Assembly: GCF_001447785.1 (NCBI RefSeq)
Contig: NW_015173766.1
Span: 33,324 to 97,323, forward strand
Length of the DNA stretch: 64,000 nt
From: Gekko japonicus
Lineage: Eukaryota
Direction of reading: 5' to 3'
In this document: one piece after another, positions 36,785 through 40,610 of the stretch
How positions within the stretch are numbered: the first letter of the stretch is position 1
How the letters are laid out: each line of letters starts with the position of its first letter
Made by a program: the position numbers and the translations under genes
The notes under the pieces: model-generated
Seen by the model: the letters and a program-made list of their open reading frames with translations, nothing else
The model's database searches: none
Told to the model about the DNA's origin: nothing

Positions 36785-38482
36785 CTTGAATGGTTTGTGA
36801 TTGATGGACTCAGGGGCTTTTTCCAAGTCTATGCTGGGACTAGCATCAACTAGCATTTCCAGGTTCCCCTTGTGGTATGAGAATAATGGCTTCCAAAGTA
36901 CACCTTTTCCAGTTTCTGCTCCCAGTCCCTGCTTCTAAGGGCACACGCAAAAGCAATAATGTTTTTTCCTCCCCTCAGAAGGAAAGCAGGAATTCTCAGG
37001 AGTCTAAACCGTGATGCTTATATGATGGTTGTTTCTGCGGGAAATTGCCGCATTTTACAGCCACTGTGCTCACATAAATCGCCACTGAAAACTGGCAGCC
37101 ACATTCAGGGATGTTTCAAGTCATGCATTACTCCCTCTATGTGGTTCCATCCCCAAGGGCAGATACAGGACTCTATGAACTCCAGTTTCAAGCTGAATAT
37201 TCGGAAAAATAATTAATTTTGGCAGTGGCCCTGCTCTCTGATCACACACTCACACTACTGTTCCACAACATCCTTTCAGTCTGTATAGTTTCATGGTAAT
37301 TTGCTTTTTTGTAGCAAAATCTCCCCCCCCTCTTGGGCCAATCTTTGATTTAGTAGTTAGCTCCAAAATGTCCTTCTGAGTCACAGGGTAGCAGCCTTCC
37401 CTGCAGTCTGGAGATATACAGCTATTACTTCAGTCAGCCCTGCTCTTGGGTTTATAGTAGTTCTTTTAAAAGCTTCATATTTTATTCCTTCAGGGGCTGC
37501 TGAGATTTTTATGAAGAAGGGGCATGCAGCCCAGCCCACTCTTCTATTTTGGCACACACATTTGAAAGCTGCTGCTGCCCTTCAAGTAACCAAAAAAAAA
37601 AAAAGTATTTGGATTCCATCCAGAGATTGGGTCCAAGATTTTTTCTAAAAAAATGGCTAATGTGGGTTGCAAATGGGGATGACAAACAGGTACCTCAACT
37701 TTTTGATGTGACTAGAACTTGAATAAATTTATATCCCATCTTTTCCCCCATTCCCCGAGTTCAGGACAGAACACATTGGTCTCCATTTTATCTTCAGAAC
37801 AACCCTGGACAGGCAGACAGTGACCAGACCAAGCTCACCCTGTGACCCTCATAGCCAAGTGAGGATTTAAACCCAGATTGTCCAAGTCCTGTGCTCTAAC
37901 TACTATGCAAGAAGTATGGCTGATTCACTACTAAAATTCCCTGTATTAAGGATAACTCTGCTGATTCCTACAGCATTATCCCAAGTAGTATGAGCCTTGA
38001 TCCATATGTTCAGTTGAAAGTTGTGCAGAAATGATTTCCGGTCTGTGGATCAGCAATGGTGGTCGTTCTCCCCGGACCTCGGGGGAGCGGCTCGCACACC
38101 AGCGGTATGGAGGGGTGCTACCTCAAGTAGCACTCACACAGAGCCTTTGCGATAGGCTCCAGGCCAGAGGGCTTTTGAGGGGCAGCCTCTTCGACAGCTC
38201 AATGCCAGAGAATTGAGGCTTCCCTCCACCCTGACGGTCCTGCTGCTGTGTGGCCCTCGGGCACAAGCTGATTCTACTGGGACAAGCGCTGGAGATCTAG
38301 CAGAAAAGCGATTACTGCGAGCGAGGTCAGAGAAATGACCAACAATGGACGTGAGTTCAAAATAAGCGGAATAATTTAAAAGTGAACTAACACACCCCCC
38401 CGTGGGAAAAGCGGAGTGCAAAGAGGGACACCTCTTATGCGAATGGACAGACAAGTGAAACGAAGGGGCGGGGGGGGGGGGA

Positions 38483-38639
38483 NNNNNNNNNNNNNNNNNN
38501 NNNNNNNNNNNNNNNNNNNNNNNNNNNNNNNNNNNNNNNNNNNNNNNNNNNNNNNNNNNNNNNNNNNNNNNNNNNNNNNNNNNNNNNNNNNNNNNNNNNN
38601 NNNNNNNNNNNNNNNNNNNNNNNNNNNNNNNNNNNNNNN
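38483..38639. other. Assembly gap (157 N) after a G run
   Basis: Direct reading. Confidence 1.
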
Positions 38640-38641
38640 GC

Positions 38642-39400
38642 AGCATCAACTGTCAGACGAAGAAGAAGGTGGCGCATGCGACTGAGAGAATTAAAGAGAT
38701 AGACACCACAAATAAGAAAATGAAGAAAAGAATGGGGGAAGTTGAAGCAAAACAAAACTTCCAAGAAAACCATTTGCTACAGCTACAAATGGAAAAAGGC
38801 AATATGATTCTCAGATTCCAGGGAGTGCCTGAATCGGAAAAGGAGGATCTGAGGAAGCTTCTCAGTGAGATCATTGCCCCAGCAATAGGCTCAACAGCGG
38901 ATGAACTAGTAAAAGAGATGGACACTGCCTATAGGGCATACTCCAATTATATTTTAAAAAATAGCCTGCCTGGAGAAATTGCGGTCTGATTCTCAAGAAG
39001 ACAGACCAAAGATGCTATTTTAAAAGTGACTTCAGCAACTCCACTGAAACTGGGGAATACAAACATTAAAACTTTAAAAGACATTCCATTTGAAATTCGC
39101 CAAAAGAGGAAATGCTATAAGGACTTAATTTCTTTTCTTCAAACCAATGGAATTTCGTACAGGTGGGCGATCTCAGAGGGTGTCATCTTTAAAATCAATG
39201 ACAAAAGAGAAAAGATTGACTCCATTTTTAAAGCCAACTAATTTTTGAGACGTCAGTTGGGATCGGAGGAAGAATCCAAAGAGGAAGAATCGAAAACAAG
39301 CCACTCCGCTACCTCTGGAACGGATGAAGACTCTGCTGTAGAAACGGGTGCAGGCGCAATGAAAGCTACATATGATTTCAGAGACAGAAAACCGAAGTAA
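38642..39400 (+). pseudogene. L1 ORF1p-like coding region (coiled coil, RRM, CTD, acidic tail) with two in-frame stops
   Basis: One frame: ...ERIKEIDTTNKKMKKRMGEVE...NMILRFQGVPESEKEDL...MDTAYR...PGEIAV*FSRRQTKDAILK...LKDIPFEIRQKRK...ISYRW...; stops at 38987 and 39239; the start lies in or before the gap. Confidence 0.85.
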
Positions 39401-39577
39401 AGGCAGAAGGACTCTGAAATTTGCCTTTTGAAGCAAATAACAAGAAGATGCTCAGAAAGTTCTCTCACAATAACTAATATACTAACATTGAAGCCGAGAC
39501 AAACAAGAACTCTACAAGTATATTGTTGGTTCGAAAGCAAAACGTAACACACACTGCGAGTAGATAAATGGGTACCT

Positions 39578-40123
39578 ACCCTTAGAAGGGTAGGGGGCAC
39601 CCTCCTCTCATGAGGTGTGTGGTGTGCGGCGGATGAACAGTGGCAATGGCGGCGAGATGGCAGTTGCAGTGGAGTCCTGGCAGCGGAGACGGTATGGCAC
39701 GGCGGCGACAAGAGCCAGAAGAGTGATCCCTGGTGGCCAGCGGTGGAACATCGAAGCAGCCGTCATCATCAGTAGTGGAAGAGGCACGCAATGACAGCAA
39801 TTCCAGGTGCAGCGGAGCCCAAGGGACACAGCCGGGGCCAAGGAAAGCAGATTCGCACGTCATGGAAGCTACCCGCCTGAAAAGGCGCCAAAGGAGACGT
39901 CCCGCCAGAGAAAGAGGACTGGAAAAATCCGAGCCGAAGCCGGAAAGATCAGCCACCACCTGGGTGCTGGTAGGCTGTCCCACCCCCCATCCCCTCGTAT
40001 AATGTGGCCGTAGTTAGGGAAGCAATGTGTGATTAGCACCCCCTATGTAACCCACCCAGAGACCTCCACGGGGGTTAGGGCGGTATAACAAATCGAATAA
40101 ATAAATAAATAAATAAATAAATA
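39578..40123 (+). mobile_element. GC-rich element with an L2-type 3' end, nested in the HAL1-like 3'UTR
   Basis: Ends tgtaacccacccagagacc...gggcggtata...(AAAT)n; abrupt compositional shift from the AT-rich flanks. Confidence 0.65.
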
Positions 40124-40610
40124 ACAGATCAACACGGATATGGTCTCCTCCTCTTGGGTTTTTAGTGTGGTTATCTTTCCTTTATCCTTAGTCCCCTTCC
40201 CTCATATTTTCTTTGTAGTTTGGTAGTCTAATATAAAAATAATAAAAATATCCCTCCGGGGATTTCAAAAAAAAAGAAAGTTGTGCAGAAATGTGTTGAA
40301 ATGCCTCCCCAACACAGACAGCACCTCCAGTTTACACTGGAGGCTATCAGATTTTGCAATCACACTGCATTGACTCAGACACCAGTTTCTCCCATGGGTG
40401 CAATTTACATGCAAGCCTTTATTTCTGAGCCATTTTTTGTTCCCTGGTGATGAACATTTCCCATTAAATGTATGCAACGCTTAACAATGTGGCCCAAAAA
40501 GAAACAGACTAATCTAGAGCAATGCCAATAGGCCAAACCCCAAAAAAAAATCATAAAGGGGGGGATGAAAACAAGGTGATATCAAAAAGAGCAGAGTCAT
40601 ATATACTTGG

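Follow-up and report, generated by a model that had tools for sequence, protein, structure and literature searches.

The element at positions 38016..40293 of the window, the whole stretch of 64,000 nucleotides of Gekko japonicus DNA that was analysed, is a dead copy of an approximately 1.8-kb L1 derivative that contains ORF1 only. We consider that it belongs to a large and old gecko family of ORF1-only L1 retrotransposons of about 1.8 kb, which likely use ORF2p in trans, and we give this reading a probability of about 0.86. Half-L1 (HAL1) elements of mammals were reportedly described by Smit in 1999 and by Bao and Jurka in 2010. This design, which for LINE-1 we found described in mammals only, likely arose separately in lizards. 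No report of an ORF1-only L1 in reptiles was found in the literature searched, and an entry in Repbase or Dfam is possible.

Structure and state of the window element

The window copy is damaged by a frameshift, two stops, a nested foreign repeat of about 590 bp and a sequence gap; all its features except the gap are given on the plus strand. It is bracketed by a target site duplication (TSD) of 18 bp, GAAAGTTGTGCAGAAATG, whose left copy (38016..38033) is preceded by TT and matches the right copy (40276..40293) at 18 of 18 positions, which confirms the L1-type TT|GAAA insertion site proposed in the initial annotation. The visible part of the 5'UTR (38034..38483) starts at the same base as in sibling copies and is CpG-rich, as had been claimed, with 22 CpG in 450 bp (observed/expected 0.63) vs 16 in 2000 bp of flank (0.16); by analogy, it is likely to be an internal promoter. 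The TCCGGT motif, which we take to be ETS-like, opens ORF1-only and autonomous elements alike (38034-38045 in the window; L179, L197, L204). An assembly gap of 156 N (38484..38639) falls where the 5'UTR ends and ORF1 starts, and this region measures about 170 bp in the window vs about 290 bp at the same place in siblings.

The ORF1 remnant (38640..39400) comprises a coiled coil, an RRM, a CTD and an acidic tail, and closes with a TAA (39398-39400). The L1 ORF1 with an acidic C-terminal extension described earlier is indeed present, but its frame is broken by two premature stops (TGA 38987-38989 and TAA 39239-39241) and by a 2-bp deletion near 38656 relative to siblings, of which one (L002:976-1911) has an intact ORF1 of 311 aa. 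The acidic tail cannot be regarded as special to this element, since autonomous lizard L1 ORF1p also have one. No ORF2 similarity was found inside the element, where the initial annotation had seen no room for ORF2, and the sole ORF2 match of the whole window lies at 26-178.

Comparison with sibling copies delimits a first part of the 3'UTR, with ACTAAY motifs (39401..39528), and a second part (40117..40249) that includes AATAAA at 40241-40246. A terminal hairpin with a 5-bp stem and a UCCG loop (40250..40263) lies between AATAAA and the tail of nine A (40267..40275) and is kept across subfamilies; polyadenylation signal and tail had already been recognised. Between the two parts of the 3'UTR sits a member of a different repeat family, truncated at its 5' end and tailed by (TAAA)n, which is foreign to the element and absent from siblings. 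A separate insertion after ORF1 had thus been rightly noticed, but it extends over about 39529..40116 and not over 39576-40123, with a start about 47 bp further upstream. This nested repeat has no TSD, and its arrival deleted about 16 bp of the 3'UTR. Its family is abundant (40 other matches at 75-90%), and none of the four copies examined has a tRNA head. The front part of the repeat, in the window and in L032-L038, is similar to a SINE in L006, while the body differs and ends in the (TAAA)n tail. The SINE in L006 terminates in ACCTTT repeats, which are the tail of Sauria SINEs according to the accessible part of PMC13295347. Judged by its sequence, the nested repeat is possibly a chimeric SINE. 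The same 3'UTR nucleotide (39528 in the window) was hit independently by different elements in the window copy and in L006.

Copies, insertion marks and abundance

The initial annotation had left two readings, a family or a single internally deleted L1, and had proposed a genome-wide search for the ORF1-3'UTR structure. When the gecko's own genome was searched with the 3' half of ORF1 joined to the 3'UTR, all 39 other matches listed were 94-96% identical, with 3,466 candidates, and ORF1 passes into the same 3'UTR, free of the insertion, in the 29 copies fetched. Flanked by TSDs of their own, full copies are 1.75-1.81 kb long, or about 1.78 kb. A protein search of the same genome gave 150 matches at 75-90%, the query excluded, and 40 of its loci, taken with 9 kb, had the same build at DNA identities of 75-93%. 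Altogether, 152 loci were examined, 12 of them second fetches of the same copy, and 136 show the C-terminal half of ORF1. Not one of these 136 has an ORF2 start after ORF1; downstream, the family 3'UTR motif was found in 115, a gap or short flank in 13 and neither in eight. Mid-ORF2 pieces lie near five of the 136 loci, and we read them as a host LINE. Similarly, none of 20 copies picked by the 5'UTR alone runs on into ORF2. The family reading is therefore upheld and the single internally deleted L1 is refuted. The sequence is also present in raw DNA and RNA runs.

The 61 TSDs determined for family copies have a median length of 17 bp (range 11-21), with C or T at position -1 in 49 and A at position +1 in 48, and a boundary that is pyrimidine|purine, mostly Y|AA. 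They resemble those of young autonomous L1s, whose TSDs were found in five of seven cases. More distant ORF1-only copies (40-56% identical in protein) likewise have TSDs and tails of their own. In the DNA tree, at least ten subfamilies run in parallel, and their terminal branches are about 0.03-0.05 long. Seven further ORF1-only copies were met by chance in about 0.75 Mb of flank (one weak 31% match excluded, both L091 copies counted). Scaled from the flank, the family comprises on the order of 10^4 copies, a rough estimate because five of these seven copies sit in or beside L1s. ORF1-only copies were also seen in or beside four of 20 autonomous L1 loci (L083, L091, L096 and L098), mostly in the same orientation.

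Phylogeny and origin

The ORF1 phylogeny against autonomous L1s, which the initial annotation had suggested, bore out the family as a separate lineage. The ORF1-only copies form one clade in a protein tree of 30 rows (support 100/100, stem 1.1), where it holds nine ORF1-only rows and two proteins without genomic context (P0002 and P0018) and none of the 11 autonomous rows. The same single clade is recovered with 54 rows (SH-aLRT 99); both trees are unrooted, and their rows exclude mammalian HAL1. The clade spans subfamilies down to about 45% protein identity. P0002 and P0018 come from public runs, and since the best match of P0002 in the gecko's own genome reaches only 65%, the clade may occur in another species.

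Sensitive blastn with two subfamilies against the sample of about 50 autonomous L1 loci detected no parent L1, and the UTRs are not common to any of them; only a short 5' terminal motif is shared by ORF1-only and autonomous elements. Subfamilies at 45% protein identity share 3'UTR blocks and the terminal hairpin, which indicates one loss of ORF2, and we infer one origin of the clade in the lizard lineage. This origin appears to be separate from that of mammalian HAL1, because the family ORF1p is 27-37% identical to ORF1p of lizard L1s and 16-17% identical to the human protein. Two autonomous-type L1s (L214 and L202) have ORF1 and large, in-frame-looking ORF2 deletions and are either other non-autonomous derivatives or single deletions. 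At L080:1325-4860, the 5'UTR and ORF1 are tandemly duplicated before one ORF2.

Selection on ORF1

The proposed comparison of dN/dS among subfamilies revealed purifying selection. It was calculated pairwise on 67 real copies, nine of the 76 having been dropped as gapped or misaligned, and 53 copies fell into 12 groups. The mean net dN/dS between subfamilies (66 pairs) is 0.20, or 0.13 with CpG codons masked, and the net value for the CTD between groups is 0.07. Within the window's subfamily it reaches 0.68; in subfamilies B-K and the young set, chosen by protein score in a way that favours intact copies, within-group values are 0.26-0.66. Fixed changes amount to 75.5 synonymous and 36.5 nonsynonymous vs 136.5 and 289.5 among singletons (p 1e-11), and an ORF of at least 295 aa is found in 16 of 76 elements. 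ORF1 is under purifying selection along the source lineages. Constraint between subfamilies together with decay within them means that selection acted on source elements without ORF2, as one would predict for an element whose mobility depends on its own ORF1p. A parallel argument on selection is made for guinea-pig HAL1 in the available text of PMC3627910.

Terminal hairpin and 3'UTR motifs

In 74 of 80 copies, the stretch between AATAAA and the A tail can be parsed into two arms, the first C-rich and the second G-rich, around a short loop that is mostly of the UNCG type. One pair of the stem is T-A, T-G or C-G according to the subfamily, and one group lengthens both arms. The stem has 3-6 bp, the arms are mostly invariant C/G runs, and the hairpin of the young subfamily folds at -3.9 kcal/mol. 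The median folding energy of the last 30 nt is -7.1 kcal/mol for 13 ORF1-only ends vs 0.0 for 16 autonomous ends, two ORF1-only and three autonomous ends being left out as unparsable. The hairpin is missing at that place in 15 of the 16 autonomous L1s. L083 is a true autonomous exception with a strong hairpin (L083:2034, minus strand) between AATAAA and the A tail, and autonomous L214 folds at -6.3 further upstream. The L083 hairpin provides a lead on the origin of the family 3' end. Among ORF1-only copies, the most distant one, L091, has a different loop and L096 has no hairpin. The young copy L190 was polyadenylated early, without the hairpin, so that this structure is not strictly required.

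According to the accessible part of PMC10830416, human ORF2p binds a stem-loop before poly(A) that anchors the template, and the authors propose that this stem-loop lets Alu outcompete the L1 3'UTR. By analogy, the terminal hairpin of the gecko family may help to capture ORF2p. ACTAAY motifs occur 2-4 times per 3'UTR in 10 of 11 tested vs about 0.3 times in shuffled sequences. As a motif, ACTAAY resembles a branch point or the Quaking element, the latter as given in the portion of PMC6847458 at hand.

A young subfamily and its candidate helpers

A young distant subfamily was first seen in the search with P0002, as 28 places with one identical score. With its 308-aa ORF1p as query, 48 of 128 scored matches shared the highest score, and the others descended stepwise to 74%. 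The 20 copies fetched encode 20 identical proteins, 18 of them from identical ORF DNAs and two with one silent change each; perfect TSDs of 13-21 bp flank 13 of the 20, and ORF2 is found in none. The young 3'UTR gave 18 top-score matches including the query's own place, with all 40 matches listed at 99% or more, and in an independent DNA run 2729 of 2817 contigs were at least 99% identical to the young element. RNA reads at least 98% alike cover it in all three RNA runs, but they fall on either strand and mark no clear start; for the window's subfamily, no matching RNA run was listed. The young subfamily is likely still active, and only likely because the set was picked by score and the assembly may smooth repeats; its youth may be overstated, as short-read assembly can homogenise near-identical repeats.

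The same genome contains young autonomous L1s, with five copies 99.8-99.98% identical and an open endonuclease and reverse transcriptase frame of 1261 codons, and a second family of young autonomous L1s as well; intact young L1s of 6.2 kb are assembled. None of the sampled candidate helpers has sequence in common with the ORF1-only family. Several young copies differ in detail. In L179, L181, L184 and L192, the TSD is separated from the first base of the element by 2-33 extra bases that vary from copy to copy and are possible 5' transductions or untemplated additions. L179 is inserted within another repeat, L181 and L192 have internal 3'UTR deletions that retain the hairpin, and the 3' end of L187 is inverted.

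The ORF1p protein and its relatives

By sequence, the best PDB match of the family protein is human L1 ORF1p (E 1.5e-4), which is also the top hit of a profile of 98 relatives (E 7e-16). The model of the young-subfamily ORF1p (mean pLDDT 86) has an 87-residue helix, an RRM, a CTD and disordered ends, and the human L1 ORF1p trimer came first in a fold search with it (E 8e-11). The family ORF1p is thus predicted to have the L1 fold. Its identity to autonomous lizard L1 ORF1p is 27-37%, and to the human protein 16-17% by structural alignment. Pfam Transposase_22 scores 16.7 bits on P0001, under the cut-off of 22.4, the Pfam CTD family gave one weak match only in the gecko's own genome, and a word-indexed protein search returned no homologue, while the full HMMER search did find homologues. 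The relatives that have names belong to gecko, snakes, lacertids and a fence lizard. The nearest of them, P0003, listed by NCBI from a gecko, is encoded at 100% in the gecko's own genome; it is followed by ORF2 and proved to be an autonomous L1 ORF1. The L1 ORF1p relatives P0003, P0007, P0012 and P0036 are listed as apolipoprotein A-IV-like, myosin-6-like or trichohyalin-like.

Discussion

The family encodes ORF1p only, this ORF1p belongs to the L1 clade, the copies amplified with L1 marks and the coding capacity was kept for long. An ORF2 with endonuclease and reverse transcriptase, as autonomous L1s have, is lacking, and we found many dispersed, decaying copies, not a single conserved host locus such as a domesticated ORF1 gene of the L1TD1 type. 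We propose that the CpG-rich 5'UTR would drive a full-length transcript and that ORF1p would coat its own RNA. Such action in cis would account for the decay of inserted copies despite selection along the source lineages. The enzyme, ORF2p with its endonuclease and reverse transcriptase, would be borrowed from one or more autonomous L1 families, target-primed reverse transcription would start on the A tail, and the short hairpin ahead of this tail might help the RNA to win ORF2p, as has been proposed for the Alu stem-loop. A bolder version is tentative, and we regard it as rather doubtful: the half-L1 clade of the gecko would go back to one ancient loss of ORF2, would now be as numerous as its hosts or more so (on the order of 10^4 copies), would still be transposing, and would obtain ORF2p from several unrelated L1 families by means of its own ORF1p and a specialised 3' hairpin. 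Were this true, the gecko would offer a living and clonable pair of parasite and helper in a non-mammalian host, and experiments could separate what ORF1p is for in cis from the RNA signal by which ORF2p is captured.

The ORF1-only copies could also be repeated by-products of hidden autonomous L1s, arising by deletion, splicing or early polyadenylation, with the selection belonging to the parents. The sampling of autonomous L1s is incomplete, long young repeats are under-assembled and a gap lies downstream at 13 of the 136 loci, yet no ORF2 start was found in the 136 loci or in the 20 copies picked by 5'UTR, subfamilies only 45% identical have 3'UTR blocks and the hairpin in common, and young L1s of 6.2 kb are assembled intact, which leaves this origin very improbable. 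We think it equally improbable that ORF1 was retained not for mobility but as a domesticated protein that serves the host or as a dominant-negative one that suppresses L1 in trans; domesticated ORF1p derivatives and trans-acting ones do exist in mammals, according to the accessible parts of PMC11925450 and PMC5605252. Against this, inserted copies decay with stops and frameshifts (16 of 76 with an ORF of at least 295 aa; dN/dS 0.68 within the subfamily), while the branches between subfamilies are constrained, which is how selection acting through transposition would look.

Another candidate in place of L1 ORF2p is a LINE of another clade that would recognise the hairpin and mobilise the family. 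In its favour, 3' stem-loops are used by stringent LINE clades, and the hairpin is mostly missing from the sampled autonomous L1s. TSD length, Y|AA target and A tail are nevertheless those of the genome's L1s, and no non-L1 element with the same 3' end was present among 29 loci fetched, so that we give this mobilisation hardly any weight. The least probable reading by far is a single internally deleted or misassembled L1: the window copy does have a gap and a nested insertion, but the structure recurs in more than 100 separate copies with TSDs of their own, and the sequence is found in raw DNA and RNA runs as well.

The reading that we retain, a gecko family of ORF1-only L1 retrotransposons likely mobilised by ORF2p in trans, brings the half-L1 life style to a non-mammalian host, where it was likely invented anew. 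This suggests that dropping ORF2 and keeping ORF1 is a stable way of life that recurs. With intact copies that are almost identical and with intact helpers, the genome supplies natural reagents for studying the role of ORF1p on its own RNA and the way in which an RNA other than L1's own gets past the cis preference of L1. As the family is barely detected by similarity to mammalian L1, it matters for the annotation of lizard repeats, where related L1 ORF1p are carried as apolipoprotein-like genes.

Among known systems, autonomous lizard L1s, in the accessible text of PMC5381506, share with the gecko family an ORF1p with coiled coil, RRM, CTD and acidic tail, a CpG-rich 5'UTR with a TCCGGT start and many families active side by side. 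In contrast, the gecko family has no ORF2, a 3'UTR of about 300-350 vs about 60-250 bp and a separate ORF1 clade; the words HAL1 and non-autonomous are absent from the main text of that article (Boissinot and Sookdeo 2016), as far as it was available. HeT-A (Jockey clade) and Ag-Sponge (CR1 clade), bipartite non-autonomous LINEs that retain ORF1, also have a single ORF1-type protein and obtain the enzyme in trans but belong to different LINE clades and insect hosts, as presented in the available part of PMC5786205. Alu resembles the family by a stem-loop before the A tract that is missing from the autonomous L1 3' end, but it is non-coding and its stem is far longer, the gecko hairpin having 3-6 bp and a putative role (PMC10830416, in part). 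The closest parallel is mammalian HAL1, a non-autonomous, ORF1p-only L1 derivative in the accessible sections of PMC5753468, PMC5786205, PMC3627910 and PMC13756887. HAL1 denotes a structural grade that arose several times among mammals (PMC5753468, in part), and very young families are reported from guinea pig and marmoset (PMC3183009, in part), so that youth alone is not unique to the gecko family. The gecko hairpin and ACTAAY-rich 3'UTR find no mention in the portions of the HAL1 texts examined. Unlike mammalian HAL1, the gecko family lives in a lizard host, has a lizard-L1-like ORF1p and comprises many parallel subfamilies (about 45% protein identity) with one apparent origin. Like mammalian HAL1 as portrayed in these partial texts, it has ORF1p only, long-kept coding capacity and L1 insertion marks, and in these testable defining features the gecko family works like mammalian HAL1.
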